From: Verrucomicrobiales bacterium
GTDB lineage: Bacteria; Verrucomicrobiota; Verrucomicrobiia; Limisphaerales; JAFMIX01
Length of the DNA stretch: 35,445 nt
Assembly: GCA_017853785.1 (NCBI GenBank)
Contig: JAFMIX010000003.1
Location: forward strand, 1 to 35,445
Direction: 5' to 3'
Notes under the pieces: model-generated
The model's input: only the letters and a program-made list of their open reading frames with translations
What the model was told of the DNA's origin: nothing
Databases searched by the model: none
Shown here: positions 5,282-34,874 of the stretch, piece after piece
Layout of the letters: each line of letters begins with the position of its first letter
Position numbering within the stretch: position 1 is the first letter of the stretch
Translations under genes and position numbers: made by a program

Positions 5282-5359
5282 TTGGTAAATTGACGGGGCC
5301 GGCAAATCGCCGGCGCTGAAACGGAGAAGGGGCCGGCCCTGTGCCGTCCCTCCTGATGA

Positions 5360-6829: not shown

Positions 6830-7816
6830 ATGAAACGATTCGCCGCTGCGGTTTGTTGCGCGCTGGCGCTGACGATGGTCGGCGGCGTGACCCTGTCTGC
6901 GCGGGCGGAGCTGCGGGCGGTGAAGTTGTTTGGGCGGGATCACGTGCGGGTGCGGGACTGGGCGGCGGCGAACAAATTCCAAGTTCGCTGGCTCGAGCCT
7001 GACCGGCGCGCGCTGCTGACCAACGCCACCCACCGCTTGGTGCTCACAGCCAACTCCCCGCAGGCGGAACTCAACGGCATCAAAATCTGGCTCGCGTTTC
7101 CTGTGGTCGCCAGCGGCGGCGGGCTTTGCCTCAGCTCCGTGGATTTGCAGACGACGGTGACGCCTTTGCTGTTTCCGCCACGAAATCCGTCGGGCCGAAA
7201 AGTCAAAACCATCGTGCTCGACCCCGGCCACGGGGGCAAAGACCCCGGCAACCGCGTCGGCGCCGAAGCCGAAAAAAAATACACGCTTCTGCTGGCCCAG
7301 GAAATCAAGGACTTGCTCAAGCCGTCCGGCGTAAAAGTTGTCTTCACGCGCACCTCGGACAAGTTTGTTGAACTAGCTGACCGCCCCGCCAAAGCCCAGC
7401 AGGCCGGAGGGGATCTGTTTGTAAGCCTGCATTTCAACGCCACGGCGGAGGGTCGCAACGAAGTCCAAGGCTCGGAGGTTTACTGCCTCACGCCGGTCGG
7501 AGCCACCTCGACGAACACCCGCGGTGAGGGCAACACTTCCCGTGTGGCCGGCAACCGCCACAACGACCAGAGCACGCTGCTCGCTTACCAGATCCAGAAG
7601 GCCCTCCAAGCCGGGACCGTGAGCGAAGACCGTGGCGTGCGGCGGGCGCGCTTCGCCGTCTTGCGCGATGCCGCCATGCCGGCAGCGCTGGTCGAGGCGG
7701 GCTTCATGTCGCATCCCGTGGAAGCGAAGAAGATTTTCAACAGCACCTCGCGCCGCGAGATGGCCCGCGCCATTGTCAAGGGCATCCTTGCCTACAAGCG
7801 CGATGTTGGAGGGTGA
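6830..7816 (+). CDS. N-acetylmuramoyl-L-alanine amidase (Amidase_3) with signal peptide
   Basis: LDPGHGG.DPG, EKKYTL, FVSLHFNA, ALVEAGFMS zinc/catalytic motifs; N-terminal signal peptide. Confidence 0.93.
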   Translation: MKRFAAAVCCALALTMVGGVTLSARAELRAVKLFGRDHVRVRDWAAANKFQVRWLEPDRRALLTNATHRLVLTANSPQAELNGIKIWLAFPVVASGGGLCLSSVDLQTTVTPLLFPPRNPSGRKVKTIVLDPGHGGKDPGNRVGAEAEKKYTLLLAQEIKDLLKPSGVKVVFTRTSDKFVELADRPAKAQQAGGDLFVSLHFNATAEGRNEVQGSEVYCLTPVGATSTNTRGEGNTSRVAGNRHNDQSTLLAYQIQKALQAGTVSEDRGVRRARFAVLRDAAMPAALVEAGFMSHPVEAKKIFNSTSRREMARAIVKGILAYKRDVGG

Positions 7817-11056: not shown

Positions 11057-12105
11057 AAAATCAGCATCGCATCGCCGTAACTGAAAAAAAGGTAGCGCTC
11101 GCGCACGGCTTCGGCGTAGGCGGCTAAGATGGCTTCGCGCCCGTGCGGTTCGCCCGGCGCGGCGAACGCGCTCACGAGCATGAGCAAGGTGGAGCAGGGG
11201 AGATGAAAATTCGTGAGCAGCGCGTCCACGATTTTGAATTGATACGGCGGATAAATGAAAATTTTGGTGCGGTCGTTCGTGGCGACGAGTCGGCCGGAGT
11301 TTTTTGCGGCGACACTTTCCAGCACGCGCACACAGGTCGTGCCGACGGCGATGACGCGGCGGCGGGACTTTTTCGCGTCGTTGATGGCGTGCGCGGTTTC
11401 GGCGCTCAACTCGAAACGCTCCTCGTGCATGACGTGCGCAGCGAGCGTGTCGGCCTTCACGGGCGCGAATGTGCCAAGCCCGACGTGCAACGTAACGAAG
11501 CGCACCTCCACGCCGCGGGCGCGGATTTCGTCAAGCAGGGCGGGGGTGAAATGCAATCCGGCGGTGGGCGCGGCGACGGAGCCGGGCGGTTGCGCGAAGA
11601 CGGTTTGGTAACGCTCGCGGTCGGCGAGGACTTGGGTCTTGCGCAAGATGTAGGGCGGCAAGGGGATTTCGCCGAGCGCATCGAGTTCGGCGCGGATGTC
11701 GTCGCAGCCGGTGAATTGCAGGCGGCGATGGCCTTCGGTGTTGGTGTCGAGGACGCTCGCAGAAATTTTTTCGGTCAGATTGATCTGCGTGCCGACGGGC
11801 GCGCGCTTGCCGGGCTTCATGAGCGCCCACCAGTTGTTGCGCCCATTTTCTTCAAGTAGAAAAATTTCAAACGCGCCGCCGGTTTTGGCGTTCGTGCCGC
11901 GGAGGCGGGCGGGGATGACGCGGGAGTTGTTCAGCACCAGCACATCGCCGGCGCGGAAGTGGTCGAGGATGTCGCGGAATTTTTTGTGCGCGATGTTGCC
12001 GGAATCGCGTTGCAGGACGAGCAAGCGGGATTCGTCGCGTTGCGGCGCGGGAACTTGGGCGATGAGTTCCGGTGGCAAAACGTAATCAAAATCGGCGGTC
12101 AGCAT
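11053..12105 (-). CDS. queA: S-adenosylmethionine:tRNA ribosyltransferase-isomerase
   Basis: DFDYVLPPELIAQ, PLPPYI, RYQTVFA, AAPTAGLHFT, TLHVG.GTF, NFHLP.STL, FSYGDAM. Confidence 0.98.
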   Translation of the reverse strand: MLTADFDYVLPPELIAQVPAPQRDESRLLVLQRDSGNIAHKKFRDILDHFRAGDVLVLNNSRVIPARLRGTNAKTGGAFEIFLLEENGRNNWWALMKPGKRAPVGTQINLTEKISASVLDTNTEGHRRLQFTGCDDIRAELDALGEIPLPPYILRKTQVLADRERYQTVFAQPPGSVAAPTAGLHFTPALLDEIRARGVEVRFVTLHVGLGTFAPVKADTLAAHVMHEERFELSAETAHAINDAKKSRRRVIAVGTTCVRVLESVAAKNSGRLVATNDRTKIFIYPPYQFKIVDALLTNFHLPCSTLLMLVSAFAAPGEPHGREAILAAYAEAVRERYLFFSYGDAMLIL

Positions 12106-12213
12106 CGGCGGAGAGGGTAGTGAGCAAGGAGAAATTGGCGAGCGGGGAGTGGGGTTATGCGCATGGTTGGGAAGGGATTGTGAATAAGTTGTGCAAAAAG
12201 GCGAAAAATGTAG

Positions 12214-12269
12214 TTGACGAAAAGTGGGGCGGAGTGTTTAACAGTGGGGTGTTAAGGGGCAAAAGTGTG
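12214..12269 (+). promoter_or_regulatory. dcw promoter with putative MraZ-binding direct repeats
   Basis: TTGACG at 12214-12219. GTGGG (12224), GTGTT (12234), GTGGG (12244), AAGGG (12254), GTGTG (12265) recur at about 10-bp period upstream of mraZ. Confidence 0.6.
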
Positions 12270-12299
12270 CCAAAGTCCCTTGATGTGAACAAAACGTCA

Positions 12300-12755
12300 A
12301 TGCAACCCAGCGAAACGATCTATTACAACTCGCTATTCCGCCACGGGGTGGACGAGAAGCGACGCGTGCAGATACCCGCCAAGTGGTTGCCGACGGAGGG
12401 CTCGGTGGAGTTCACGATGATTTTGTGGCCGAAGGCAAAGGAAGGTCCGTGTTTGCGGGTGCTGCCGCCGCAGGAGATGGCGGAGTTGATGGCGTCGATT
12501 GATGCGATGCCGAACAGCGACCCGAACAAGGGCGTGCTGAAACGTTTTATCGGGAGCGAGTCGGTGCAGGTGGTGGCCGACAAGGCGGGGCGGGTTTGCC
12601 TGCCGGAAGAAATGGCCAAGGCCGCGGGCATCAAGGACGAGGCGGTGCTTGTGGGCTGCTTGGACAAGTTTGAGATTTGGAATCCGAGCGCCTATCCGAA
12701 GGTCAAGGCGTCCGACTCGGTGATGGCGACGGAGGCGTTCAAGCTGATGGAATGA
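12300..12755 (+). CDS. mraZ: Division/cell wall cluster transcriptional repressor MraZ
   Basis: Two AbrB-like motifs (HGVDEKRRVQIPAKW; DKAGRVCLPE), VGCLDKFEIWNP. First gene of the dcw cluster. Confidence 0.93.
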   Translation: MQPSETIYYNSLFRHGVDEKRRVQIPAKWLPTEGSVEFTMILWPKAKEGPCLRVLPPQEMAELMASIDAMPNSDPNKGVLKRFIGSESVQVVADKAGRVCLPEEMAKAAGIKDEAVLVGCLDKFEIWNPSAYPKVKASDSVMATEAFKLME

Positions 12756-13631: not shown

Positions 13632-14564
13632 GTGGTGGCCATCTTCGTTCACAAACCAGTTCTGTTGGCCGAGGTGTTGACCGCGCTGCAGCCGAAACCC
13701 GGCGGCAGTTACGTCGATGGCACGCTCGGTGGGGCTGGGCATGCAGCGGCAATTTTGGCGGCGAGCAGCCCGACCGGACGGCTGCAGGGCTGCGACCGCG
13801 ACGGTATAGCGATTGAAGCGGCGGCGGCCCGGTTGGCGGAATTCGCCGGGCGGTTTGAATTGCGGCGCGGCAATTTTTGCGAACTGGCGGAGTGGTTGCC
13901 AGCGCAGAGTTACGACGGGGTCTTGTTGGATCTGGGCGTGAGTTCGCCGCAGCTGGACGCGGCGGAACGCGGGTTCAGTTTCCAGCAGGACGGGCCGCTG
14001 GATATGCGGATGGACGCGCGGCAGCCGGTGACCGCGGCGGATGTGGTGAACACGACCGGGCCGGAAGAGTTGGCGAAGATTTTTTGGGAATACGGTGATG
14101 AGGAACAGTCGCGGCGGTTCGCGAGGGCGATCGCGTTGGACCGGCAGACGCGGCGGTTCACGACGACGAAGCAGTTGGCGGATTTGATCGAACGGCTGGC
14201 GCCGCGGCGCGGCAGCAAGACGCATCCGGCCACGAAAGTTTTTCAGGCCCTGCGGATTGCAGTGAATGACGAGATCGGTTCTTTGAGACGCGGGTTGGAT
14301 GGAGCGGTGAAGATTTTGAGGCCCGGCGGCCGGCTGGCGGTGATCACGTTTCACTCGCTGGAGGACCGGGTGGTGAAAGATTTTGGGCGCGCGCACACGC
14401 GGGACTATGCATTACCTGGAGGGGTGGATGTGCCAGAACTGCGTGTGCCGCGCGACCCGGTTTTGAAATGGGTGATGCGCAAGGCGATCAAGCCTGGCCC
14501 GGCGGAACTGGCGGCGAACCCGCGCAGCCGCAGCGCGCAATTGCGGGTGCTGGAGAAAATTTGA
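13632..14564 (+). CDS. rsmH: 16S rRNA (cytosine(1402)-N4)-methyltransferase
   Basis: HKPVLLAEV, DGTLGGAGHA, DLGVSSPQLD, GPLDMRMD, HPATKVFQALRIAVN, FHSLEDR, NPRSRSA. Confidence 0.98.
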   Translation: MVAIFVHKPVLLAEVLTALQPKPGGSYVDGTLGGAGHAAAILAASSPTGRLQGCDRDGIAIEAAAARLAEFAGRFELRRGNFCELAEWLPAQSYDGVLLDLGVSSPQLDAAERGFSFQQDGPLDMRMDARQPVTAADVVNTTGPEELAKIFWEYGDEEQSRRFARAIALDRQTRRFTTTKQLADLIERLAPRRGSKTHPATKVFQALRIAVNDEIGSLRRGLDGAVKILRPGGRLAVITFHSLEDRVVKDFGRAHTRDYALPGGVDVPELRVPRDPVLKWVMRKAIKPGPAELAANPRSRSAQLRVLEKI

Positions 14565-15118: not shown

Positions 15119-16999
15119 ATGGTAAAGCAACTACAATTCAAGCGGCTGTTCTGGCTGGCGCTGCTGCTCGTCTTTGGATTCGCGGGCCTCGGGCTCCGGC
15201 TCGGCTCGCTCCAGGTGCTCCGGCACGAAGAGCTCTCCAACCTCGCGCAGCGCAACACCCAGCGCACCTTCTCCCTGGAACCGCGCCGTGGCGACATCCT
15301 CGACGCCAAAGGAAACCTGCTCGCGACGAGCGTCTTCGTGAAGACCGTTGCCGCCGATTGGAACTTCATCGGCCCGCGCGTACGCGAAGTCGCCCATGCC
15401 GTCGCTCCGGTGCTCGGGCTGGACGAAGCGGGGTTGGTGCAATTTCTCGAATCCCGCCGCCTGCGTAAAAATTCCAAGGGGGAGACCGTCACCAACGCCT
15501 TCGTCGTCCTGAAGAATAAAGTTTCCGCCGAAACCTGGGAGCGGTTGCAGCAGACCATGGCCAATCTTTCCTTCGGCGTGGAAGAAAAGAAACTCCCCAA
15601 AGCCGAGCAAGCCTTCTACCGCAACCTCCGCGCGAAAGCCATCGTCGCCGACCCGCGCAGCGACCAGATCCGGGTCTATCCCAACCAGCAACTCGCCGCG
15701 CATGTCCTGGGCTATGTCGGTCTCGCCGACCGCATCGTCAACAGCAACCGCGTGAGCGAACTCGCCGGAGCGGAAGGCATCGAGCGCGTGCTGAACTCCA
15801 AGCTCTCTGGCGTCTCCGGCTGGCGCGTCACCGAAACCGACCGCCGCAATCGCGAACTGCTGACCCTTCGCGAACAGGAAGTCGCGCCGCACGACGGCCT
15901 CAACGTTGTGCTGACCATTGATTCCATGATCCAACACATCGCCGAGACGGCCCTGGCCGAGGCGGTGCAGAAACATTCGCCCATCAGCGCCTCTGCCATC
16001 GTCGTGCGCCCCCGCACTGGGGAAATCTTGGCGATGGCCACGCTGCCGAACTACGACCCGAACAATCCCGGGGCCGCTGCCGCCGCCGCCCGCCGCAACC
16101 GCGTCATCAGCGACCTTGCCGAACCTGGCTCGACCTTCAAAGTGGTCGTCGTTTCCGGCGCCCTGAATGACGGGCTGGTGCGGCTGACGGATAAGTTCGA
16201 CTGCGAGCGGGGAAAATTCGCCTTCGCCGGGCGGGTGCTCCACGACCACGACCCCTACGACACCCTCACGGTGGAGAACATCATCACCAAATCGTCGAAC
16301 ATCGGCTCGGCCAAAATCGGCATCCTGCTCCAGGAAGCACGGCTGCACCAATACATCCGCGACTTCGGTTTTGGCACCGCCACGGGAATTCCCTTGAGCG
16401 GCGAAGTGCGCGGCATTGTGAATCCCGTCAAGAGCTGGTCCAAGGTTTCCATCGCGCAGATTCCGATGGGCCACGGCGTCGCCGTGACTCCGTTGCAAAT
16501 GATCATGGCCATGAGCGCCATTGCGAACGACGGCGTCTTGATGCGCCCCTTGCTCGTGGATCGGCTCGAAGACGAGACCGGCCATGCTGTCGCGCAGTAT
16601 CCGCCGCAACGCGTCCGCCAAGTCATCAGCGCCGCCGCCGCGCACGAAATGGTCAAGGCTCTCAAGACCGTCGTCACCACGGATGGCACGGCCGCCAAGG
16701 CGGCGCTCGACTATTACACCGTGGCCGGCAAGACCGGCACGGCACAGAAGGTCATCAATGGCCAATACGCCAACGACAAATTTTTCTCCTCCTTCATCGG
16801 CTTCTTCCCGGCGGAGAATCCCGAGCTGTGCATCTCGGTCGTTTTGGACGAACCGAAAGGCGGCCACTATGGCGGCCAAGTGGCGGCCCCCGCCTTCAAG
16901 CAGATCGCCGAACGTGCGGCCAACTACCTCAACATCCGTCCCGACCGCGAAACTGAAGCCAAACCTGGCAAACCAACCAACCTCACCAAGAAATCTTGA
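15119..16999 (+). CDS. ftsI: Class B penicillin-binding protein FtsI (PBP3)
   Basis: N-terminal TM, RRGDILD, R.YP, G.EGIE; transpeptidase motifs EPGSTFK (SxxK), KSSN (SxN), KTGTAQK. Confidence 0.95.
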   Translation: MVKQLQFKRLFWLALLLVFGFAGLGLRLGSLQVLRHEELSNLAQRNTQRTFSLEPRRGDILDAKGNLLATSVFVKTVAADWNFIGPRVREVAHAVAPVLGLDEAGLVQFLESRRLRKNSKGETVTNAFVVLKNKVSAETWERLQQTMANLSFGVEEKKLPKAEQAFYRNLRAKAIVADPRSDQIRVYPNQQLAAHVLGYVGLADRIVNSNRVSELAGAEGIERVLNSKLSGVSGWRVTETDRRNRELLTLREQEVAPHDGLNVVLTIDSMIQHIAETALAEAVQKHSPISASAIVVRPRTGEILAMATLPNYDPNNPGAAAAAARRNRVISDLAEPGSTFKVVVVSGALNDGLVRLTDKFDCERGKFAFAGRVLHDHDPYDTLTVENIITKSSNIGSAKIGILLQEARLHQYIRDFGFGTATGIPLSGEVRGIVNPVKSWSKVSIAQIPMGHGVAVTPLQMIMAMSAIANDGVLMRPLLVDRLEDETGHAVAQYPPQRVRQVISAAAAHEMVKALKTVVTTDGTAAKAALDYYTVAGKTGTAQKVINGQYANDKFFSSFIGFFPAENPELCISVVLDEPKGGHYGGQVAAPAFKQIAERAANYLNIRPDRETEAKPGKPTNLTKKS

Positions 17000-17727
17000 A
17001 TCCCTCCCGCCCCCAACTTTTCGGAATGCTCGCCGGCCTGTTCCTCGCCGCCGGGCTCGTGTGCTCCGCCATGCTCGCCACCGGCGCGTGGGTGAAGATC
17101 AAGAACTCGCAATTCATCAACGTCAAAGGCTCCGTGCAGAAAAGCATCGAGTCTGACCTCGCCATCTGGTCGGGCAGCTTTCAGACCGAGGCTGAAACCT
17201 TGCTCGCCGCGCAGAAAAAAATCCGGGATGACCGCGCGCTCGTCGAAAAATTTCTCCAGAGCGCGGGCGTGAAGGAATTCGCCTTCCTGCCCATCGGCAT
17301 CGAGGAGCTCAAGGCCACGCAGAAATCTGCCGATGGTTTTGTTTCGCACCGGACCACCGGCTATCGCCTGCGCCAGGGCGTATCGGTGGAGTCCGCGGAC
17401 GTGGACCGGTTGGACCGGCTCGACACCACGCCGCTCGTCGAGCAGGGGGTGCTGTTCACCGTTGCTCCCATTCAATTCATCTACACCCGCGCCGGCGACA
17501 CGAAGGTCGAGATGCTCGCCGCCGCGACCAAGGATGCCCGCACGCGTGCGGAGCAGATTGCACGACAGGGAGGCTGCACCATCGCGCGCTTGCATAGCGC
17601 GGACCAAGGCATCTTCCAGATCACGCCCCGGCACAGCGGCGCGACCAGTTGGCAGGGCGAGAGTGACACTTCTTCGCGCCAGAAAACCATCACCGCCGTC
17701 GTGACCGCCAGCTTTATGCTGAAATAA
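16996..17727 (+). CDS. SIMPL (DUF541) domain periplasmic/membrane protein
   Basis: N-terminal TM, INVKGSVQKSIESDLAIW, KVEMLAAATKDARTRAEQIA, GIFQITP, KTITAVVTASF. TTG start overlaps the ftsI TGA; alternative ATG 17026. Confidence 0.85.
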   Translation: MNPSRPQLFGMLAGLFLAAGLVCSAMLATGAWVKIKNSQFINVKGSVQKSIESDLAIWSGSFQTEAETLLAAQKKIRDDRALVEKFLQSAGVKEFAFLPIGIEELKATQKSADGFVSHRTTGYRLRQGVSVESADVDRLDRLDTTPLVEQGVLFTVAPIQFIYTRAGDTKVEMLAAATKDARTRAEQIARQGGCTIARLHSADQGIFQITPRHSGATSWQGESDTSSRQKTITAVVTASFMLK

Positions 17728-17731
17728 AATT

Positions 17732-19123
17732 GTGGAAGCGCGCTCATTGAAATTTATTGCCGCGGCCTGCGGCGGGGAAATCCTGCGGGGCGCGGTGGGT
17801 GCGATGGTGACGCGCGTGTGCATCGATTCCCGCCGGGCACAGTCCGGTGATTTGTTCTTTGCCATCAAAGGCGACCGCTTCGATGGCCATGACTTTCTCG
17901 AAGAAGTCGCGGCCAAGAACGTGGCGGCCGTCGTCATCGCGCGAAATCGCAAGCCGGCTCAATTGCCTGACTGCGCGGTGATCGTTGTGACCGAGGTGCG
18001 CGCGGCGCTGGGCCAGTTCGCGGCGGCGCATCGGGCGGAACTGGATTTGCCCGTCATCGCCGTCGGCGGTTCGAACGGCAAGACGACGACGAAGGATCTG
18101 ATTGCTGCCGTGCTGCGGCAGAAGTTCACCACGCTCGCGAGTGCGGCGAGCTTCAATAACGACATCGGCGTGCCGCTCACACTGTCGCAGTTGACGCGCG
18201 AACATCACGCCGCCGTGGTGGAAGTCGGCACGAATCATCCCGGCGAACTCGCGCCGCTGGTGCGGATGGCCGCACCGCAGTTCGGCGTCATCACGAACAT
18301 CGGGCGGGAGCATCTGGAATTTTTCGGCGACCTCGCTGGCGTGGCGGCGGAGGAGGGCAAACTCGCCGAGCTGCTGCCTGCGACGGGGAAATTATTTTTG
18401 AACGGCGACGACCCGACGACGGAAGTCATGGGCCTGCGTACTCCGGCTAAAGTTGTACGCGTGGGGCTGGGGCGCAGCTGCCACTGGAACGCGGGCGCGA
18501 TCCGCGGTGATCGCCGCGGCACGACCTTCAACGTCGTCGCGCCGGTGGTGGGGTTGGTCGGCGAGTATCGCATCAATTTGCTGGGGCGGCATCAGGTGGT
18601 GAACGCGCTCTTTGCCATCGCGGTCGGCGCGGAGCTGGGTTTGAGCCGCGAGGAAATCCAGCGTGGCTTGAGCGCGTGTCCGCCGGCGAAGATGCGGCTG
18701 CAACTTTGGGAAGCGAACGGCGTGACGGTGCTGGACGACAGTTACAACTCGAACGCGGATTCCATGGCCGCCGCGCTGCAAGTGCTGGCGGAATTGCCAG
18801 GCGCCGGGCGGCGGATTGCGGTCCTCGGCGACATGGCCGAGCTCGGCGTGCACGCGGAGGCCGCGCATGCGGAAGTCGGGCAGCGCGCTGCGGCGGCGGG
18901 CGTGGGGCAGTTGTTCGCCGTGGGCCAGATGGCGGGTGTGCTGGCGGCGGCGGCGCGGGCGGCGGGCCTGACGCGCATCTTTGAATTTCCGGATGCGGCG
19001 GCGGCGGCCGGCGCGGTGGAAAATTTTGTGAAGCCGGGCGATGTGGTGTTGTTGAAAGCGTCGCGGGCGGTGCGGCTGGAGCAGGTGGCGGAACGGTTGC
19101 AGGCCGAGCCGGCCGGGAAGTGA
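17732..19123 (+). CDS. murF: UDP-N-acetylmuramoyl-tripeptide--D-alanyl-D-alanine ligase
   Basis: IDSR, GDRFDGHDF, GSNGKTTTK, SFNNDIGVPLTL, EVGTNHPGE, DDSYNSN, LGDMAELG, LLKASR. Confidence 0.95.
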   Translation: MEARSLKFIAAACGGEILRGAVGAMVTRVCIDSRRAQSGDLFFAIKGDRFDGHDFLEEVAAKNVAAVVIARNRKPAQLPDCAVIVVTEVRAALGQFAAAHRAELDLPVIAVGGSNGKTTTKDLIAAVLRQKFTTLASAASFNNDIGVPLTLSQLTREHHAAVVEVGTNHPGELAPLVRMAAPQFGVITNIGREHLEFFGDLAGVAAEEGKLAELLPATGKLFLNGDDPTTEVMGLRTPAKVVRVGLGRSCHWNAGAIRGDRRGTTFNVVAPVVGLVGEYRINLLGRHQVVNALFAIAVGAELGLSREEIQRGLSACPPAKMRLQLWEANGVTVLDDSYNSNADSMAAALQVLAELPGAGRRIAVLGDMAELGVHAEAAHAEVGQRAAAAGVGQLFAVGQMAGVLAAAARAAGLTRIFEFPDAAAAAGAVENFVKPGDVVLLKASRAVRLEQVAERLQAEPAGK

Positions 19124-19127
19124 TGCG

Positions 19128-20270
19128 ATGTTATATTATTTGAGCCATTATCTTTTGAACGCGGCCCACGGCACGGAGTGGGCGGCGGCGCTCTCGCCGT
19201 TGCGCGTGTTCAAATACATCACGTTCCGCAGTGCGGGCGCGGCGGTGACGGCGCTGGTGTTGAGCTGGCTGTTCGCGCCGCGGATGATTGCGTGGCTCAA
19301 GCAGATAAAGTTCGGCCAGGAATACGCCGACAAGGCGGAGGGCGCGGGCGTGGCGCACGCGACGGTGAAACGCGGCACGCCGACGATGGGCGGGTTGTTG
19401 ATCGTCTCGACGCTGACGATCTCGACGTTGCTGTGGGCGGACTGGAATCCGCTGGTGGCCTTGACGCTGCTGGCGTTGGTGACGTTCTGCGGGCTGGGCT
19501 TCCACGATGACTACACAAAAATCGCGCAAGGCAATGCCCGTGGTGCCACGTCCGTGGTGAAACTGGTTGTGCAGACGACTTTGGCCTTGGGCATCGGCAT
19601 TTATCTGTGGCTCGTGCCGGCGACGAGCAAGCTGGTTACGGACATCATGGTGCCGTTCTACAAGCATCCCGTGGTGACGGGTGCGGTCGGGCTGGGCCTG
19701 TTGCTGATCGTGCTGACCATCGTGGGCAGTTCCAACGCGGTGAACCTCACGGACGGGCTGGACGGATTGGCGATCGGCTGTACGCTGATCGTTTCGTTCG
19801 CGCTGCTGGTGTTGACGTATCTCGCGGGGAATTTCAAGACGGCGAGCTACCTGCAGATTCCGTTCGTGCCGGGCGCGGACGAATTGACGGTGTTTTGCGC
19901 GGCGCTCATCGGCGCAGGGTTGGGCTTTCTTTGGTATAACTGCCATCCGGCGCAGGTGTTCATGGGTGACACGGGGTCGCTCGCGCTCGGTGGTGCGCTC
20001 GGCGTGATAGCGGTCCTGATCCATCAGCCGTTTGTGTTGTTCATCGCCGGCGGGGTGTTCGTGCTGGAGGCCGCCTCCGTGATGCTGCAGACGGGGTGGT
20101 TCAAATTCACCCGCAAACGCTATGGCATCGGGCGGCGGATTTTTCTGATGGCTCCGCTGCATCATCATTTCCAAAAAAAGAGCTGGCACGAGACGCAGGT
20201 CGTGATCCGGTTTTACATCCTGTGCATTTTGTTCGTAGTGCTCGCGCTGAGCACTCTGAAAATCCGCTGA
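19128..20270 (+). CDS. mraY: Phospho-N-acetylmuramoyl-pentapeptide transferase
   Basis: GTPTMGG, GFHDDY.K, SNAVNLTDGLDGLA, FMGDTGSLALG, MAPLHHHF. Confidence 0.98.
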   Translation: MLYYLSHYLLNAAHGTEWAAALSPLRVFKYITFRSAGAAVTALVLSWLFAPRMIAWLKQIKFGQEYADKAEGAGVAHATVKRGTPTMGGLLIVSTLTISTLLWADWNPLVALTLLALVTFCGLGFHDDYTKIAQGNARGATSVVKLVVQTTLALGIGIYLWLVPATSKLVTDIMVPFYKHPVVTGAVGLGLLLIVLTIVGSSNAVNLTDGLDGLAIGCTLIVSFALLVLTYLAGNFKTASYLQIPFVPGADELTVFCAALIGAGLGFLWYNCHPAQVFMGDTGSLALGGALGVIAVLIHQPFVLFIAGGVFVLEAASVMLQTGWFKFTRKRYGIGRRIFLMAPLHHHFQKKSWHETQVVIRFYILCILFVVLALSTLKIR

Positions 20271-20275
20271 TCGCC

Positions 20276-20617
20276 ATGCCCATTTTACGACCCGACAAAA
20301 ACCTGATGCCCGGTGCGCCCCGCCGCGGGAAATCAGCGTTACCCCGGCGTGCTTTTACTCCTTGCGCCACCCCGGGTTCGTTGCTAAAAACACTGCGAGC
20401 AGCGGCGAAAAATTCAGGCGACAACAGCAAGGCGATTTCACTTTCACCGACTGACTTCGGCTTCGACCAGATACGGAACGGCAACCACCTGGGCGGGGCA
20501 TTTTTACCCGATGACAATTTAGTCCGCCGGGGAATTTTCCGAGGAAAAAATTCCCAGGCGGACTCAGACTCAACACAACCAACAACCACCTCAAAGAAAG
20601 GACGCAATCAGCGTTAA
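20276..20617 (+). pseudogene. Probable degenerate remnant of murD 3' end (113-codon ORF)
   Basis: In the canonical murD slot. FTPC..GSLLKTLRAAAKN...ISLSPTDFGFDQIRNGNHLGGAF resembles the MurD C-terminal VLLSPACASFDQF.NY..RG..F motif. Confidence 0.6.
20521..20564 (+). other. Hairpin upstream of LysM gene
   Basis: AGTCCGCC.GGGAATTTT pairs with AAAATTCCC.GGCGGACT. Confidence 0.55.
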
Positions 20618-20621
20618 GCAA

Positions 20622-21416
20622 ATGAAGCAACCGAATCCGTTCAACTCGCCTCAAACCCCACAGGACCGTCTCAACCAAAGCCGCACCCGCCTGCGCCTCG
20701 CCGTTTTCGGCGCGCTCGCGTTATGCCTGCTGGTGCTCGTGCCGCTGCTCGTTCAGGGATGCAAGCGCGAAGAGCCCCCTGCGCCGCCGGTTGACTCCGG
20801 TTTTCCGCCGCTGGTCACGGACACCAATCTGCCGCCGCTCGATTCGGCACACACCAACGTCACGTTGCCGCCCATCAGCTTCCCGCCGATGACCAACCCG
20901 GCCATTCCGCCCGTCGCACCTATCACCCCCGAAGTCCCGCCTGTGACCCCGGTCGCCGCCGATGGCGAATACACCGTGGCCAAAGGTGATTCCTTCTACA
21001 CCATCGGCCAGAAGCACGGTGTGTCCATCAAGGCCATCAGCGAGGCCAACCCCGGCGTGGATTCCACCAAGCTCAAGATCGGCCAGAAGCTGATCCTCCC
21101 CGCGCCCACCGCCGCCGCCCCGACCGCCACCCCCGGCGCTCCCTTCGCGGATGTCGCCAGCGGTGACAAGACCTACACCGTGAAGTCCGGCGACACGCTC
21201 ACCCGCATCGCCAAGACGCAGGGAGCGACGGTCAAGGCCATCAAGGCCGCGAACAACCTGACCACCGACCGCATCAAGGTCGGCCAGAAGCTGAAGATTC
21301 CCGGCAAGGCTGCGGCTGCCGCGCCCCTCCCTGTGACGGAACCGGCCCCGACCATCGTGCCGCCGCCGGCCCCGGAAACCGCGCCGGCTTTGCCGCCGCT
21401 CGCAGCCCCGAGATGA
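20622..21416 (+). CDS. Membrane-anchored protein with two LysM peptidoglycan-binding domains
   Basis: TM ending in LLVQGC, Pro-rich linker, YTVAKGDSFYTIG...KLKIGQKLILP and YTVKSGDTLTRIA...RIKVGQKLKIP. Confidence 0.93.
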   Translation: MKQPNPFNSPQTPQDRLNQSRTRLRLAVFGALALCLLVLVPLLVQGCKREEPPAPPVDSGFPPLVTDTNLPPLDSAHTNVTLPPISFPPMTNPAIPPVAPITPEVPPVTPVAADGEYTVAKGDSFYTIGQKHGVSIKAISEANPGVDSTKLKIGQKLILPAPTAAAPTATPGAPFADVASGDKTYTVKSGDTLTRIAKTQGATVKAIKAANNLTTDRIKVGQKLKIPGKAAAAAPLPVTEPAPTIVPPPAPETAPALPPLAAPR

Positions 21417-21440
21417 TAGATTAAATAGTAAACATTCCAT

Positions 21441-21473
21441 CCCGGACGCCGGCTCCCCTCCCCGGCGTCCGGG
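21441..21473 (+). other. Perfect 12-bp GC stem-loop between LysM gene and ftsW (no U-tract; possible mRNA stabiliser/processing site)
   Basis: CCCGGACGCCGG (21441-21452) / CCGGCGTCCGGG (21462-21473). Confidence 0.65.
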
Positions 21474-21488
21474 GCAGCGACAGGTCGA

Positions 21489-22640
21489 ATGAAATTGGCC
21501 GTCAATACTTTGGTTTTATGTGTGTGCGCACTCCTTGCCCTGGGGATGGTGATGCTTTACAGTGCGAGCATGGCCGATGAGGTGCGCAACCGGCAGGTGG
21601 GCGCTCACTACCTCATGGCGCAACTCGTCTGGTGCACGCTCGGTTTGGTCGGCGGCTGCGTCGTGGCGCTGCTTGACTACCGCACGCTGAAAAAAATCAC
21701 CCTTCCGCTGCTGCTGCTCGCCCTGTTTCTCCTGCTGCTGGTGCTGATTCCGCACATCGGCCTCAAGGTCAACGGGGCGCGCCGCTGGCTCGGCTTCCAC
21801 AGCATCCGCTTCCAGCCTTCTGAGCTGGCGAAGCTGGCCCTCATCGTCTTCCTCGCGTGGTATGGCGAGCGGTATCAGCGCCAGATGCACACCTGGATGC
21901 AGGGAATTGTCATTCCCGGTGCGTTCATCGGGGCGACGCTCCTGCTAATCTTCGTCGAACCGGACCGCGGTTCCACCATCCTGCTCGCGGCGGTGAGCGC
22001 CGCGATGTTGCTGCTCGCGGGCGTGCGCTGGAAATACTTCGTGCCGCCGGTGCTGGCCGGCGTGGCGGCGCTGGCACTTTCCATCTGGCATGACCCGATG
22101 CGCATGAAGCGCATCTTCAGCTGGCTTGATCTCGAGCAGACCAAGTCCGGCGTCGGCTACCAGGCGTATCAGGCGATGCTCGCGCTGGGGGCGGGCGGTT
22201 GGACCGGTCTCGGGCTTGGCAACGGCCGCCAGAAACTCGGCTTCGTGCCGGAACATCATACGGATTTCATTCTCTCCATCATCGGCGAGGAACTCGGCTT
22301 CGTGGCCACCTTTGCCGTCATCGTCGGCTTCATCCTCATCGTTGTGAGCGGACTTTACATCGCCCGGCACGCGCGCGACACCTTCGGGCTGTTGCTCGGG
22401 GCGGGCCTCACAATCCTCATCGGCCTCCAAGCCTTCATCAACATCGCCGTGGTCACCAGCGTCTTTCCGAACAAAGGGCTGCCCCTGCCGTTCATCAGTT
22501 ACGGCGGCTCGAATCTCCTGATGATGCTCGTGTGCGTCGGCTGCTTGCTGAGCATTGCCCGGCAGGCGCGCGAACCGGCGGCTGTGCCGGACCGCGCGGT
22601 TGAAACCGACGAATTCCCCGGCCTCCAAACGGCGCCATGA
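21489..22640 (+). CDS. ftsW: SEDS peptidoglycan polymerase FtsW
   Basis: NGARRW, FQPSELAK, EPD.G, GYQ, PEHHTDFI, EELGF, KGLPLPFISYGGS. Confidence 0.96.
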   Translation: MKLAVNTLVLCVCALLALGMVMLYSASMADEVRNRQVGAHYLMAQLVWCTLGLVGGCVVALLDYRTLKKITLPLLLLALFLLLLVLIPHIGLKVNGARRWLGFHSIRFQPSELAKLALIVFLAWYGERYQRQMHTWMQGIVIPGAFIGATLLLIFVEPDRGSTILLAAVSAAMLLLAGVRWKYFVPPVLAGVAALALSIWHDPMRMKRIFSWLDLEQTKSGVGYQAYQAMLALGAGGWTGLGLGNGRQKLGFVPEHHTDFILSIIGEELGFVATFAVIVGFILIVVSGLYIARHARDTFGLLLGAGLTILIGLQAFINIAVVTSVFPNKGLPLPFISYGGSNLLMMLVCVGCLLSIARQAREPAAVPDRAVETDEFPGLQTAP

Positions 22641-23758
22641 AATCGCCCGCCGCCACCAGCCCCCGCATCGCCATCGCCTGTGGCGGCACCGGCGGCCACC
22701 TCTTCCCCGGCATCGCCATCGGGGCGGAACTGCTCCAGCGCGGTGGCGCGGTCACGTTGCTCATCTCCCCCAAGGACGTGGATCAGCAGGCCGTGCGCAG
22801 CGTTGGCGGCATGGAAGTCGTCACGCTGCCGGCGGTGGCGTTGCAGGACGGCAATTATTTTTCGTTCGCCCGCAGTTTCTGGCAGGCGCGGGGCGCGGCC
22901 CTGAAACATTTCGCCGCCCAGCCGCCGCAGGCCGTGCTCGCGATGGGCGGCTTCACCGCCGCGCCGCCGGTGTTCGCCGCGAAAAAGTTCCGCGCCAAAA
23001 CCTTCCTCCACGAGTCCAACACCATCCCCGGTCGCGCCAACCGCTTCCTCGCCCGCCGTGTGGATGCGGCCTTCGTCGGTTTCCCCGAGGCCGCCCACCA
23101 GTTGCGCGCCCGCGACATCATGGTCGTCGGCACGCCCGTGCGGCCGCAGTTCGCACCGTCGCCGTTTCCGGAAATGCCGACCTCGATCTACCGCACGTCG
23201 CTCGGGCTCGATCCGGCCCGGCCCGTGGTGTTCGTCACCGGCGGCAGCCAGGGCGCGACCGGCTTGAACGATCTCATCCTCGCCGCGCTGCCCGCGCTGG
23301 CCGACCGGGCGGACGTCTGGCAATGGCTGCATCTCACCGGTCCGCGCGATGTCGAGCGGGTCAAAGCCGCCTACGCCGCGCACGGTTGCAAGGCGGTGGT
23401 GCAACCGTTCCTCGTGGAGATGGAAGCCGCTTTCCACGCCGCCACCGCCGTTGTCAGCCGCGCGGGGGCCTCGTCGCTCGCGGAGATCGCGGCGATGAAA
23501 CTTCCCGCGTTGCTTGTGCCACTGCCGACGGCGGCGGACGACCACCAACGCCACAACGCCCGGGCGTTCGCGACTGCGGGCGCGGCGCGCGTGTTGGAGC
23601 AGGCGGCCGCCACGCCGGAAAAGACCGCCGCGCTGCTGCGCGAGTTGATGGAAGCCCCGGCAGCGCGGACGGAAATACAAGTGGCACTGGCGAAACAGCA
23701 CACGCCGACAGCGGCGGCCCGGATCGCGGAAAACATCTTAAACGCTTTGAAGTCTTGA
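22637..23758 (+). CDS. murG: Undecaprenyldiphospho-muramoylpentapeptide beta-N-acetylglucosaminyltransferase
   Basis: GGTGGHLFPG, HESNTIPGRAN, GGSQGA, SRAGASSLAE, HQRHNA. Confidence 0.97.
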   Translation: MKSPAATSPRIAIACGGTGGHLFPGIAIGAELLQRGGAVTLLISPKDVDQQAVRSVGGMEVVTLPAVALQDGNYFSFARSFWQARGAALKHFAAQPPQAVLAMGGFTAAPPVFAAKKFRAKTFLHESNTIPGRANRFLARRVDAAFVGFPEAAHQLRARDIMVVGTPVRPQFAPSPFPEMPTSIYRTSLGLDPARPVVFVTGGSQGATGLNDLILAALPALADRADVWQWLHLTGPRDVERVKAAYAAHGCKAVVQPFLVEMEAAFHAATAVVSRAGASSLAEIAAMKLPALLVPLPTAADDHQRHNARAFATAGAARVLEQAAATPEKTAALLRELMEAPAARTEIQVALAKQHTPTAAARIAENILNALKS

Positions 23759-23760
23759 GT

Positions 23761-24687
23761 ATGAACGCCACCTTGCAATCCTCTGACCTTGCTGCGGAAC
23801 TCGCGGCGCGCGTCACGGCAGCGACGGTCATCCGGCGCGACGAGCCGTTGGCCAAGCGCACGACGATGCGCGTAGGCGGGCCGGCGCATATCCTGGTCGA
23901 GCCGGCTTCAGACGAAGACCTGGCGGCGGTGGTGCGGTTCTGCGGCGAGCAGCGGCAGGAATTTTTCGTGCTGGGCCGCGGTTCGAATCTGCTCGTGCGC
24001 GACGGCGGTTTTCGCGGTGTGGTGATTTCGCTGGCGGCGGCGCATTTCAGCAGGGTGACGGTGGATGGGGAGCGCTTGCGTTGCGGCGCGGGGGCGAAGT
24101 TGAAGGAAGTGGCGGCTGCGGCGAAACGCGCGAGCCTCGGCGGATTGGAATTTCTGGAAGGCATTCCCGGCAGTGTCGGCGGCGCGTTGCGGATGAACGC
24201 GGGCGCGATGGGCGGGGCGACGTTTGATTTTGTGGAGTCGGTGCGCGTCATGGATCGGAGCGGGCTGATCGGCGAACTTTCCCGGCGCGCCATCGCGGTG
24301 GAGTATCGCTCGTGCCGTTTGTTCCAGACGCATCTGGCGCTGGGTTGTGTATTCCACGGCGTGCCCGCGCCGCGCGAGGCGATCGAAGCGAAGCTGAACG
24401 AATTCAACCGCAAGCGCTGGGAAGCGCAGCCGGCCAAGCCGAGCGCGGGTTGCACTTTCAAGAACCCCGCGACGATTCCGGCAGGCAAGCTGGTGGACGA
24501 ACTCGGGCTGAAAGGCGCGCACGTCGGTGGCGCGCGGGTCTCGCAGGAACACGGCAATTTCATCGTGAACGACGGTCGGGCGACTGCGGCGGACGTGTTG
24601 CGGTTGATCGAGGTCATCCGGCAGCACGCGCGGGCGGAACGAGGAATCGAACTGGAGACGGAGGTGGAGATCATCGGTGAAGACTAA
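23761..24687 (+). CDS. murB: UDP-N-acetylmuramate dehydrogenase
   Basis: TTMRVGGPA, GRGSNLL, GIPGSVGGALRMNAGA, SAGCTFKNP, HGNFIVN, LETEV. ATG 2 nt after the murG stop. Confidence 0.96.
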   Translation: MNATLQSSDLAAELAARVTAATVIRRDEPLAKRTTMRVGGPAHILVEPASDEDLAAVVRFCGEQRQEFFVLGRGSNLLVRDGGFRGVVISLAAAHFSRVTVDGERLRCGAGAKLKEVAAAAKRASLGGLEFLEGIPGSVGGALRMNAGAMGGATFDFVESVRVMDRSGLIGELSRRAIAVEYRSCRLFQTHLALGCVFHGVPAPREAIEAKLNEFNRKRWEAQPAKPSAGCTFKNPATIPAGKLVDELGLKGAHVGGARVSQEHGNFIVNDGRATAADVLRLIEVIRQHARAERGIELETEVEIIGED

Positions 24688-24712
24688 ACCATCCAAAAGA
24701 AAGGCGACCGAA

Positions 24713-25615
24713 ATGAAAATCACTGTGATGTTGGGCGGGCCGAGTGCGGAGCGGGAAGTGTCCTTGCGTTCCGGAGCGGCGGTGGCGGACGCGTTGGTTT
24801 CGCGCGGTTATGATGTCGAGGAACTGGATCCGGCCGGGGACGACTGGACGTTACCGCCGGACACCGATGTGGTGTTCCTCGCGCTGCACGGCACCTATGG
24901 CGAGGACGGCACCGTGCAGCGGGCGTTGGATGAGCAGGGCGTGCCTTACACCGGCTGCGGTGCGGAGGCAAGCCGCATCGGGTTCGACAAGATTTTGAGC
25001 AAGCGCGCGTTTCTTACGGCGGGCGTGCCGACGGCGAAGTTCGCGGTGATCAATTCGGTGGCCGCGCCGTGGCCGGCGGGCTGGGAATTGCCGGTGGTGC
25101 TGAAGCCGGCGTGCCAGGGTTCGAGCGTGGGGCTGCATTTCGTGGAGTGCGCGCAGGAATGGCGTGGCGCCTTGGCGGAAAGTTTCCGCTATGGTTCGCC
25201 CGTTTTGCTCGAAGAAAAAATTTGCGGACGGGAGACGACTGTTGGCATCCTTGACGGCGTGGCGCTGCCCGTGGTCGAGATCCGGCCCCGGAGCGGCGCT
25301 TATGATTATCGGTCCAAATACACCACCGGCGCGTCGGAATATTTTTGCCCGGCGGATTTCGATGCGGCGACGACGCAGCGGATCCAGGCGGCCGCGCTCG
25401 CGGCGTTTCACGCCATCGGCGGGCGGGATTATAGCCGGGTGGACGTGATGGTGACGCCGGCTGGCGAGCCGGTCGTGTTGGAGGTGAATACTCTGCCGGG
25501 CATGACGGCGACGAGCCTGTTGCCTAAAGCGGCCGCGGCGGCGGGGCTGAAATTTCCGCTGCTGTGCGAGCGCATGGTGGAACTGGCATTGCAGCGCGCA
25601 CCGGTGGCGGCGTGA
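24713..25615 (+). CDS. ddl: D-alanine--D-alanine ligase
   Basis: GGPSAEREVSL, LHGTYGEDG, GSSVG, YDYRSKY, EVNTLPG. Alternative GTG start 24677. Confidence 0.96.
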   Translation: MKITVMLGGPSAEREVSLRSGAAVADALVSRGYDVEELDPAGDDWTLPPDTDVVFLALHGTYGEDGTVQRALDEQGVPYTGCGAEASRIGFDKILSKRAFLTAGVPTAKFAVINSVAAPWPAGWELPVVLKPACQGSSVGLHFVECAQEWRGALAESFRYGSPVLLEEKICGRETTVGILDGVALPVVEIRPRSGAYDYRSKYTTGASEYFCPADFDAATTQRIQAAALAAFHAIGGRDYSRVDVMVTPAGEPVVLEVNTLPGMTATSLLPKAAAAAGLKFPLLCERMVELALQRAPVAA

Positions 25616-25627
25616 TGCGGATTTTTT

Positions 25628-26593
25628 ATGGCTTGGTTCAAACGAAAATATCAAAATCGGCGTCTGGATCGGCGCCGTGTCTTGTTGGACGTCAAACTGC
25701 GCGCCGACCAGGTGCGCGCCACCCGGATGCGCTGGGGCGCGATCGCGGTGACGGTCTCGGCGGGGACGATCTTCGGGCTGTATCTCGTCTGGCGCACGGG
25801 CGAATGGGCGGTGAATCATTTCCTGTATCAGAACAAGGATTTCGCCGTGCAGCAGATCGAGGTGCAGACCGACGGTGTGGTGGCGGTGGAACAATTGCGG
25901 CGCTGGGCCGGCGTGAAGGCGGGCGACAACCTGCTCGCGCTCGATCTCAGCCGCGTGAAGCGGGATCTTGAACTCGTGCCGCAGGTGAAGACCGCCGCCA
26001 TCGAGCGCGTGTTGCCCCGCACGTTGCGCATTCGGGTAACGGAACGCCAACCGCTCGCGCAGGCTTATGCGCCGCAGCCCCGGCCTGACGGGCGCGGCTA
26101 TGACATGAAGGTTTTCCAGGTGGACAACGAAGGCGCGGTGATGGCGCCGCTCGGGTTGCGGCAGCGGGCGACGCCGCTGGCGCAGGCGGGCGAGCAGTTG
26201 CCGACGCTCGCGGGGATCGACCCGATCAATCTGGCGAACGGCAAGAAGCTGGAGTCGCCACAGGTGCGGGCGGGGCTGGATTTGATCGTGGCGTTCGAGC
26301 GCTCGCCGATGGTGGGCTTGGCGGACTTGGCACGCATCGATATTTCTTCGCCGGGCGTGCTCATCGCGACAACGGGGCAGGGCAGCGAAGTCACTTTTGC
26401 GTTGACCGATTTTGAGCGGCAGTTGAAACGCTGGCGGCTGGTCCATGACCGGTGTCTGGCGGAGGGCAAAGGCATCGCCGCGCTCGATCTGGCCGTGCCC
26501 AGCAACATCCCGGCCCGCACCGTGGATGCCCGCGCCGTCGTCCCCATCGCGCCCAAAGCCAAACCCGCAACCTCCAGGAAACGCAATGTTTAA
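25628..26593 (+). CDS. ftsQ: Cell division protein FtsQ/DivIB
   Basis: Basic cytoplasmic N-terminus, TM, POTRA-like FAVQQIEV...NLLALDL...PQVKTAAIERVLPRTLRIRVTERQP; slot between ddl and ftsA. Confidence 0.88.
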   Translation: MAWFKRKYQNRRLDRRRVLLDVKLRADQVRATRMRWGAIAVTVSAGTIFGLYLVWRTGEWAVNHFLYQNKDFAVQQIEVQTDGVVAVEQLRRWAGVKAGDNLLALDLSRVKRDLELVPQVKTAAIERVLPRTLRIRVTERQPLAQAYAPQPRPDGRGYDMKVFQVDNEGAVMAPLGLRQRATPLAQAGEQLPTLAGIDPINLANGKKLESPQVRAGLDLIVAFERSPMVGLADLARIDISSPGVLIATTGQGSEVTFALTDFERQLKRWRLVHDRCLAEGKGIAALDLAVPSNIPARTVDARAVVPIAPKAKPATSRKRNV

Positions 26594-33870: not shown

Positions 33871-34071
33871 AACCACGAATGGACACGAATTCACATGAAT
33901 GCGAACGGAGTCAGATCATTACTCGCCTTCTCATAACATCGGTTTAGCCTGCCACACAGCGTGTAACACAGGTGAGACGTGCATGAAGTCGAAGGTTTGA
34001 GCCTGTTTAATTGATGAAGCCCTTATTGGAATGGTTTCTTGATTAGAGTTAATTCGTGTCCATTCGTGGTT
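33871..34071. repeat. Perfect 21-bp inverted repeat enclosing 159 bp (REPIN/MITE-like)
   Basis: AACCACGAATGGACACGAATT (33871-33891) and its exact reverse complement at 34051-34071. Confidence 0.8.
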
Positions 34072-34098
34072 CTCCTTCTGGGTCGGCTTAGAGTGTTC

Positions 34099-34144
34099 AA
34101 AAAAAGTAAAAAAATTTGACACCTTGTGCACGCTCTGCAATATT
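34099..34144 (+). promoter_or_regulatory. Sigma70-type promoter
   Basis: A-tracts at 34099-34114, TTGACA at 34116-34121, 17-bp spacer, then TGc-AATATT at 34136-34144. Confidence 0.6.
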
Positions 34145-34181
34145 CGGGTCACACACGGTAAACAATAAACACAAACACAAC

Positions 34182-34838: not shown

Positions 34839-34874
34839 TCACAGTTATTGCATACAACCTTAAATTAAAATCAA

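Follow-up and report, generated by a model that had tools for sequence, protein, structure and literature searches.

Recurrent loss of murC, murD and murE in an order of Verrucomicrobiota that retains the peptide ligase Mpl

Introduction

How does a bacterium build the peptide of its cell wall when the genes for MurC, MurD and MurE, the enzymes for its first three residues, are missing? To our knowledge, these three enzymes are held to be essential wherever bacteria make peptidoglycan, and to be universal there. They are also antibiotic targets. The question is raised by a 35,445-nucleotide (nt) stretch of a Verrucomicrobiales bacterium (assembly GCA_017853785.1, contig JAFMIX010000003.1, positions 1 to 35,445), hereafter the window, whose division and cell wall (dcw) cluster holds none of the three genes. 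We find that the enzymes for the first three cell-wall peptide residues are truly lost, both from the genome at large and from about two thirds of the order to which it belongs. A large and environmentally common order has thus lost murC, murD and murE repeatedly, with the rest of the pathway kept and the peptide ligase Mpl as a core gene. The explanation we favor, with a probability of about 0.62, is that murC, murD, murE and murI were deleted from the lineage, and that Mpl loads preformed peptide on UDP-MurNAc (UDP-N-acetylmuramic acid), which MurF then completes.

The dcw cluster of the window

What occupies the places of the three genes? A preliminary description, made from the letters of the window alone, read the cluster as ftsI-SIMPL-murF-mraY-(murD remnant)-LysM-ftsW-murG-murB-ddl, and our open reading frame (ORF) map and family scans bear this order out. 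Its members, all on the plus strand, are as follows.

15119..16999 (+): ftsI, a class B penicillin-binding protein; Pfam Transpeptidase 244.2 bits, PBP_dimer 73.3 bits
16996..17727 (+): SIMPL/DUF541 protein, at the place of murE in relatives; Pfam SIMPL 80.8 bits
17732..19123 (+): murF, the D-Ala-D-Ala-adding ligase; TIGR01143 395.3 bits (cut-off 288.6), all three Mur ligase domains
19128..20270 (+): mraY; TIGR00445 332.7 bits (cut-off 192.05)
20252..20503 (+): decayed remnant of the murD 3' end (tail of the C-terminal domain), inside ORF 20096-20617; tblastn with the MurD of relatives
20622..21416 (+): LysM-repeat protein; Pfam LysM 111 bits, two repeats
21489..22640 (+): ftsW; TIGR02614 378.1 bits (cut-off 337.5)
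22637..23758 (+): murG; Pfam Glyco_transf_28 94.5 and Glyco_tran_28_C 128.8 bits (both pass), TIGR01133 248.0 bits, just below 250.25
23761..24687 (+): murB, standing alone; NF010480 328 bits (cut-off 259) and Pfam domains, ATG at 23761
24677..25615 (+): ddl; NF002378 334.6 bits (cut-off 243)

The spacing given in that description holds as well. ftsI overlaps the SIMPL gene by 4 nt, 4 nt separate SIMPL from murF, and 2 nt separate the murG stop codon (TGA, 23756-23758) from the murB ATG at 23761. Because of this overlap and these two gaps, there is no room in the cluster for murE or murC. Relatives that carry the full set have murC and murB joined in a single frame of 777-828 amino acids (e.g., L091 10546-12876 in genome G036 and L092 9379-11862 in genome G012), of which the window retains the murB half only.

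The decayed fragment reported in the murD slot proved to be real. It lies in the 351-nt gap between mraY and the LysM gene, where the C-terminal 50-86 residues of relatives' MurD align to approximately 20252-20503 (+). Twelve relatives' MurD proteins served as tblastn queries, with best matches listed for seven. Among the matches listed, the relic is hit by the queries from L022, L024, L028, L029 and L073 and weakly by that from L046, and the L093 query gave no match; identities are 35-40%, the best match scoring 43.9 bits (E 5e-10 within the 500-nt search space). The enclosing ORF 20096-20617 has no Pfam or NCBIfam match.

Search of the whole genome

Could the missing genes lie elsewhere? The genome (G000) is a 2.38-Mb draft of 347 contigs, 83.97% complete with 2.93% contamination, and the window is its contig C321. 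It encodes three proteins with a Mur_ligase_M domain, namely MurF, Mpl (contig C6) and FolC (contig C88). Models of murC, murD and murE found nothing above cut-off over the whole genome, the murD and murE scores of 76.5 and 100.6 bits being cross-matches, and tblastn with the MurC, MurD and MurE of three relatives added nothing further. Of the complete Mur ligase pathway, MurF is present in this genome, and MurC, MurD and MurE are each missing from it. murI was not found in it either; murA was, with 546 bits, at G000:C329. The genome-wide search that the preliminary description had proposed thus uncovered no vertically inherited murC, murD or murE outside the cluster. Its suggestion of a relocated or fused ligase locus is refuted, since the Mur_ligase_M and Mur_ligase_C domains, the three gene models and tblastn led to no Mur-fold protein beyond MurF, Mpl and FolC.

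Nor are the junctions an artefact of assembly, as contigs from other sequencing runs and the loci of other species attest. The stretch 16500-24900 recurs in near-identical form in 20 runs from 11 studies. Runs X2 and X3 each cover all of it in one contig, with 14 and 16 substitutions, respectively, and no indels; in X4 and X9, individual junctions are crossed by shorter contigs. Near-identical contigs of the X2 and X3 type may themselves be the source of the window DNA, and we gave more weight to the comparison of species, in which 24 other species' loci lack murE, murD and murC in the same arrangement.

It is hardly credible, then, that the genes are present and merely unassembled or relocated, or that the junctions are mis-assembled. 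The fragmented and incomplete state of the draft would leave room for such an error, but all five genomes of the window's genus are without the genes, as are 92-98% complete genomes of other families, a genome with a 3.3-Mb contig and the genome of an isolate. A murE match is lacking in 258 of the 383 high-quality genomes of the order. Moreover, the murD relic sits in place, and the contigs of other runs cross the junctions.

Mpl and the remaining pathway

Which enzyme could attach peptide to UDP-MurNAc in such a cell? The Mpl gene lies outside the window, at approximately 4713-6146 on the minus strand of G000:C6. Its product scores 459.7 bits against TIGR01081, the Mpl equivalog model (cut-off 388.7), versus 308.6 bits against TIGR01082, the murC model (cut-off 335.1). 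Among solved structures it comes closest to two Mpl entries, 3hn7 (308.8 bits) and 3eag (255.4 bits), with MurC entries at or below 199.6 bits. The protein carries TAFFDKRSK, as well as FGHHP, EPRSNT and SNGGF, which align with 3hn7. According to the accessible part of PMC3060825, a TAFFDKRSK-type motif, EPRSNT and SNG are specific to Mpl, (S/T)AFFDKRSK being absent from MurC, MurD, MurE and MurF, and HH, EPRSNT and SNG are the C-terminal-domain residues proposed to bind the peptide. (S/T)AFFDKRSK is exact in 23 of 25 Mpl orthologs of the order, across all types of cluster architecture. Judged by its sequence, the C6 protein is a canonical Mpl, and its ligase activity is predicted.

In the accessible text of the same source, the tripeptide is the best substrate of Mpl, used at 260 per min, against 1.4 per min for L-Ala-D-Glu and 0.7 per min for L-Ala; tetrapeptide and pentapeptide are also substrates. 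Mpl would be the only remaining enzyme able to attach peptide to UDP-MurNAc, and would presumably carry the flux, its product UDP-MurNAc-tripeptide being handed to MurF. The MurA, MurB, Ddl, MurF, MraY, MurG, FtsW and FtsI that are kept account for all other cytoplasmic and membrane steps.

Is the clade instead giving up peptidoglycan, with the remaining genes as relics? The accessible part of PMC12283558 describes mur gene loss for some Planctomycetia orders, which lends the idea a precedent. We consider it very improbable here, given that MurF, MraY, FtsW, MurG, MurB, Ddl and FtsI are full length and stop-free, with 45-72% identity among the order's verrucomicrobial loci, that murA exceeds its cut-off in 38 of 41 relatives, and that decay is seen in murD and murE only.

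Distribution across the order

How far does the loss extend? The comparison with sister genomes that had been called for places it in the window's genus and in many relatives. Among 41 relatives, murD is above cut-off in 22, murE in 19 and murC in 13, and the genomes fall into the following groups.

All three genes: 16 of 41
None of the three: 15 of 41, including all 5 of the window's genus and genomes 92-98% complete
murD only, above cut-off: 4 of 41 (G005, G016, G028, G039)
murD-like gene below cut-off only: 2 of 41 (G024, G025)
Ambiguous: 4 of 41 (G007 and G018 with murD and murE and no murC; G027 and G032 cut by contig ends)

We extended the count to 401 evenly sampled genomes of the order, 383 of them of high quality, scoring murE at E <= 1e-40. 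murE occurs in 131 of the 401, in 125 of the 383, and in 65 of 149 genera. Mpl, by comparison, is above cut-off in 377 of the 401 genomes and 364 of the high-quality ones, and among 14 control genomes it was found in Escherichia coli only. Seven of the 20 Mpl-less genomes listed (21 in all) hold murE, and therefore Mpl is retained in at least 256 of the 270 genomes without murE. The order has Mpl as a core gene, and the loss of murC, murD and murE is characteristic of a clade, Verrucomicrobiota subdivision 3 (Limisphaerales/Pedosphaerales). As a caution, the presence of murC, murD and murE is a poor score of peptidoglycan capacity in draft genomes.

murI is above cut-off in 10 of the 41 relatives. 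Nine of these have the full murC, murD and murE set; the tenth, G032, holds nothing of the three but murD and murC fragments at contig ends. Seven full-set genomes (G006, G010, G022, G029, G033, G035 and G037) gave no murI match. The source of D-glutamate (D-Glu) may be unconventional across the whole order, beyond its ligase-less members.

History of the losses

Were the three genes lost once or repeatedly? We sorted by architecture 60 verrucomicrobial loci, each carrying five or more out of six marker genes.

Full set: 13 loci
murE and murD: 6 loci
murE only: 8 loci
murD only: 8 loci
None: 25 loci (the window and 24 other species)

Every partial state lacks murC. We concatenated six dcw proteins and built a tree with FastTree (65 rows). 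On it, murE needs at least 7 state changes, murD 8 and murC 8, counts to be read in light of the fact that the loci were picked by likeness to the window's MurF, that the tree was built from the cluster's own genes, and that 20 of the 62 inner branches lack support. The window falls in a clade of 24 rows, starred on the tree, all of which are without murE and murC and two of which retain murD. The number of independent losses is rough, yet clearly more than one. Such recurrence across the order supports the earlier proposal that the triple loss has a shared functional cause.

What order of events would produce this pattern? An order-wide supply of peptide to Mpl would have made murC dispensable. 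With murC gone first, murD and murE would be left without substrate and would decay in either order. In some partial clusters, murE-like genes keep the Mur ligase C-terminal domain and have no detectable ATP-binding middle domain (L075 8448-9956; L041 8508-9890); these truncated genes are either decaying or put to another use. Some relatives' murD genes fall below cut-off.

The partial states could also be read as steps of a different assembly, in which Mpl serves as an L-Ala or L-Ala-D-Glu ligase, a broadened MurF or ligases of another fold add the rest, and the wall chemistry could differ. The 8 murD-only and 8 murE-only loci, which stand beside Mpl and MurF, fit shorter units delivered by Mpl. 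So does the slow use of L-Ala and L-Ala-D-Glu noted above, together with the finding, in the accessible part of PMC3060825, that E. coli mpl in multicopy complements a murC(ts) mutant, overproduced Mpl thus replacing MurC. G000 and Limisphaera genome G041 further encode a dipeptide-epimerase-like protein of the enolase superfamily. We nevertheless regard stepwise assembly as unlikely. The Mpl residues proposed to bind tripeptide are unchanged in all architecture types, there is no further protein of the Mur ligase fold, neither the epimerase-like protein nor a Ddl-like ligase tracks the losses, and in the partial states decay is plain to see in several of the murE-like and murD genes. No column of the MurF alignment tracks loss of murE or murC or divides loci with murE from those without, the best score being 0.29 for murE presence. 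The preliminary description had offered an undescribed stem-peptide route, or a MurF that accepts a different substrate; of these, the alignment columns give no sign of a substrate change in MurF, and the undescribed route stands, now as the more likely half of the answer.

Source of the peptide

If Mpl attaches a preformed peptide, where does the peptide come from? We lean slightly toward an endogenous route with salvage on top. Salvage is what textbooks would suggest; on its own, from the cell's own turnover and from the wall fragments of other bacteria, it is possible at lower odds, and some other source is improbable.

The case for an endogenous route centers on Limisphaera sp. 4302-co (locus L068, genome G041), whose cluster is without murE, murD and murC, as in the window. 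By two domain models, its only Mur ligase proteins are MurF, Mpl and FolC. All four genomes of its family are alike in this, and murI was not found in any of them. As reported in the accessible part of PMC13608581, the strain was obtained in pure culture by serial dilution and grows on mineral medium with starch, yeast extract not being needed. Since an axenic strain with the same reduced gene set grows on mineral medium, an endogenous source of the stem peptide is likely, and Limisphaera likely makes its own by enzymes outside those examined. The retention of murA and murB likewise speaks against salvage alone, because imported muropeptides would also bring MurNAc.

We tentatively propose a peptide-first pathway that works without a Mur-type ligase or MurI, hands its product to Mpl, and has made MurC, MurD, MurE and MurI dispensable; we hold this specific form at somewhat less than even odds. 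If it is true, this is how the wall is made in about two thirds of an order that is widespread in soil and freshwater. An endogenous route, if real, would count as a pathway of a new kind. As there are axenic isolates of Limisphaera that share this gene set, direct tests at the bench are feasible.

The competing possibility is a strict auxotrophy for the stem peptide, in which fragments of other bacteria enter through an AmpG-like permease or peptide transporters, LdcA trims them and Mpl attaches them, a partial version of the dependence known from Fidelibacter multiformis. Candidate parts are present in the window's genome: besides Mpl, an LdcA (Peptidase_S66, 142.6 bits, G000:C257:3-353, cut by the contig end) and an AmpG-like permease (G000:C332:4793-5977, 184 bits over the whole model, below the 350 cut-off). 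The loss of murI along with murD is what one expects if D-Glu comes ready-made, and the metagenomes in which the window's stretch turns up (freshwater, estuary, aquatic and sediment) represent dense communities. F. multiformis strain IA91 sets a precedent, needing exogenous muropeptides according to the accessible part of PMC11652737. We still judge strict auxotrophy doubtful. Limisphaera 4302-co grows axenically without yeast extract, and murA (38 of 41 relatives) and murB are kept, both of which bulk import of muropeptides would make dispensable, as in IA91 and Tannerella. In addition, no AmpD was found in the window's genome, and a model search found no AmpG in G041 or in G042. Amidase_2 matches do occur in G041, G042 and G036. 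The earlier idea of Mpl ligating scavenged tripeptide therefore survives in part: the genome has a canonical Mpl together with an LdcA and an AmpG-like permease, and scavenging as the sole source is disfavored by the axenic relative on mineral medium. Either members of the order depend on neighbors for one defined piece of wall, a new and specific community dependence, or they possess an undescribed stem-peptide chemistry.

Several observations weigh against our preferred explanation of deletion followed by Mpl loading of preformed peptide. The window's genome is only 84% complete, which is a limit on the absences in it. Intact murD above cut-off is found in four genomes without murE and murC (G005, G016, G028 and G039), and these are awkward because murD should be useless once murC is gone. 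No Amidase_2 match, as expected of an AmpD-type amidase, was found in G000 (at its 84% completeness) or G043. The only wall evidence for Limisphaera in the accessible part of PMC13608581 is a diderm envelope seen by electron microscopy. Among the candidates examined, we found no enzyme making free tripeptide, and neither murI nor the class IV aminotransferases examined supplied a source of D-Glu. A route by nonribosomal peptide synthetase does not serve as a general answer, since G000, G041 and G042 gave no match to the condensation domain, against one in G043 and five in G036. The mpl neighborhood, compared over 25 loci, has no conserved partner; nothing recurs but gatB, in 7 loci, and a TPR protein, in 4. 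A Ddl-like ATP-grasp paralog is present in 6 of 15 genomes lacking all three genes and in 6 with all of them, with uninformative neighbors. A protein resembling DgcA/L-Ala-D/L-Glu epimerase or an N-acetyl-Glu racemase-like enolase (G000:C261:7475-8764) has orthologs in genomes with and without murC, murD and murE.

Further details of these rejected candidates are as follows. The Ddl-like paralog of the window's genome, at G000:C88:13940-15085 (-), scores 118 bits, below the 243 cut-off, adjoins a weak Peptidase_Mx-like ORF and is patchy in the order. Orthologs of the enolase-type epimerase are missing in G004, G008 and G013, and six of its loci have no conserved neighbors. A D-amino-acid transaminase (Dat) was rejected as D-Glu source, the class IV aminotransferases being IlvE and PabC-like. 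A long LdcA frame in G041 was rejected as a fusion; it is an open-frame effect of high G+C beside a 1624-amino-acid gene on the other strand.

Comparison with known systems

Does any known system resemble this one? The recycling route of E. coli and Psychrobacter arcticus (AmpG, AmpD, LdcA, Mpl) uses the same ligase family, has LdcA and a permease to which the AmpG-like protein may correspond, and passes its product to MurF. There, according to the accessible part of PMC3060825, the route is dispensable beside essential MurC, MurD and MurE, whereas here it is the sole remaining road. By analogy, the mechanism may be E. coli-like recycling raised from a side road to the only road.

F. multiformis IA91 (Marine Group A) is likewise free-living, without de novo steps for wall precursors and with recycling genes kept, as far as the accessible part of PMC11652737 describes it. 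It is said there to be unable to make MurNAc, D-Ala, D-Glu, diaminopimelate and lysine, and to need muropeptides in culture. In the window's lineage, by contrast, MurA, MurB, Ddl and MurF are kept and the tripeptide steps alone are gone. The organism of the window is uncultured; a relative with the same gene set grows unsupplemented. The absence of MurA or MurB that would mark a Fidelibacter-type dependence is not seen, murA being at G000:C329 and murB in the window. The MurNAc auxotrophy of Tannerella forsythia, in the partial accounts available of it, is also a selective precursor gap bridged by salvage, but the gap is the reverse one, with murA and murB lacking and the Mur ligases kept.

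Closer to home, Verrucomicrobium spinosum has a dcw cluster with the same backbone and a murC-murB fusion like that of the full-set relatives, in the accessible part of PMC12283558 (see also PMC4803751). PMC12283558 reports murC-B, murD and murE to be essential in V. spinosum, whereas the window is without all three and has murB alone; its survey describes high conservation of the dcw genes across the phylum. In the literature searched, we met no report of murC, murD and murE loss in Verrucomicrobiota, supplementary data not being covered.

Other features of the cluster and its surroundings

What else does the locus contain? The cluster continues to both sides of the genes listed above.

12072..12755 (+): mraZ-like ORF at the head of the dcw cluster; Pfam MraZ 38.7 bits over residues 164-215 only, start codon uncertain
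13632..14564 (+): rsmH/mraW methyltransferase; Pfam Methyltransf_5 353.6 bits
14566..14958 (+): ftsL/DivIC-like septum protein; Pfam DivIC 26.7 bits, below the 28.9 cut-off, label partly from position
25628..26593 (+): ftsQ; Pfam POTRA_1 (FtsQ type) 46.3 bits
26445..27815 (+): ftsA; Pfam FtsA 126.7 bits, SHS2_FTSA 86.9 bits
27828..29069 (+): ftsZ; Pfam Tubulin 75.5 bits (partial match), FtsZ_C 60 bits

The GTPase domain of this FtsZ matches only profile positions 96-189 of 190, so that either its N-terminal half is divergent or its start codon is misplaced. An AmiC-type N-acetylmuramoyl-L-alanine amidase (Amidase_3, 165.5 bits) lies at 6830-7816, 5 kb upstream of the cluster.

The SIMPL protein was rejected as a replacement for murE, since in six relatives' loci it sits between murE and murF. 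Part of the order has a SIMPL/DUF541 gene that follows ftsI (or murE) and precedes murF (L018, L020, L023, L026, L027, L032 and L084, and likewise L034, L038, L042, L051, L065 and L069). The LysM-repeat protein is a conserved member of the order's dcw cluster. Wherever the sequence of a verrucomicrobial locus extends far enough, it is found after mraY or murD and before ftsW; in our comparison of loci, those of Nitrospira, Bacteroidota and Phycisphaerales lack it.

Between murB and ddl, several relatives carry PIN-domain ORFs (L012 17201-18019, L023 17243-17692, L031 17084-17770, L067 7336-7758 and L076 17060-17563). The insertions at this site are mostly PIN-domain proteins, with one Imm33-like neighbor and other small ORFs, and resemble small toxin-antitoxin modules lodged in the dcw cluster. 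Within the window, G+C falls to 0.465 in the interval 34001-35000, against approximately 0.62 in the rest, and ORFs 34116-34838 and 34875-35444 lie there, neither showing a Pfam match as far as they were scanned. On the tree, dcw clusters from public records titled Methylomirabilota, Bifidobacteriaceae, Klebsiella, Haliangiales and Kapaibacterium (L011, L013, L018, L024, L028, L034, L041 and L051) fall inside the verrucomicrobial clade, and the taxon labels of these records are probably wrong.

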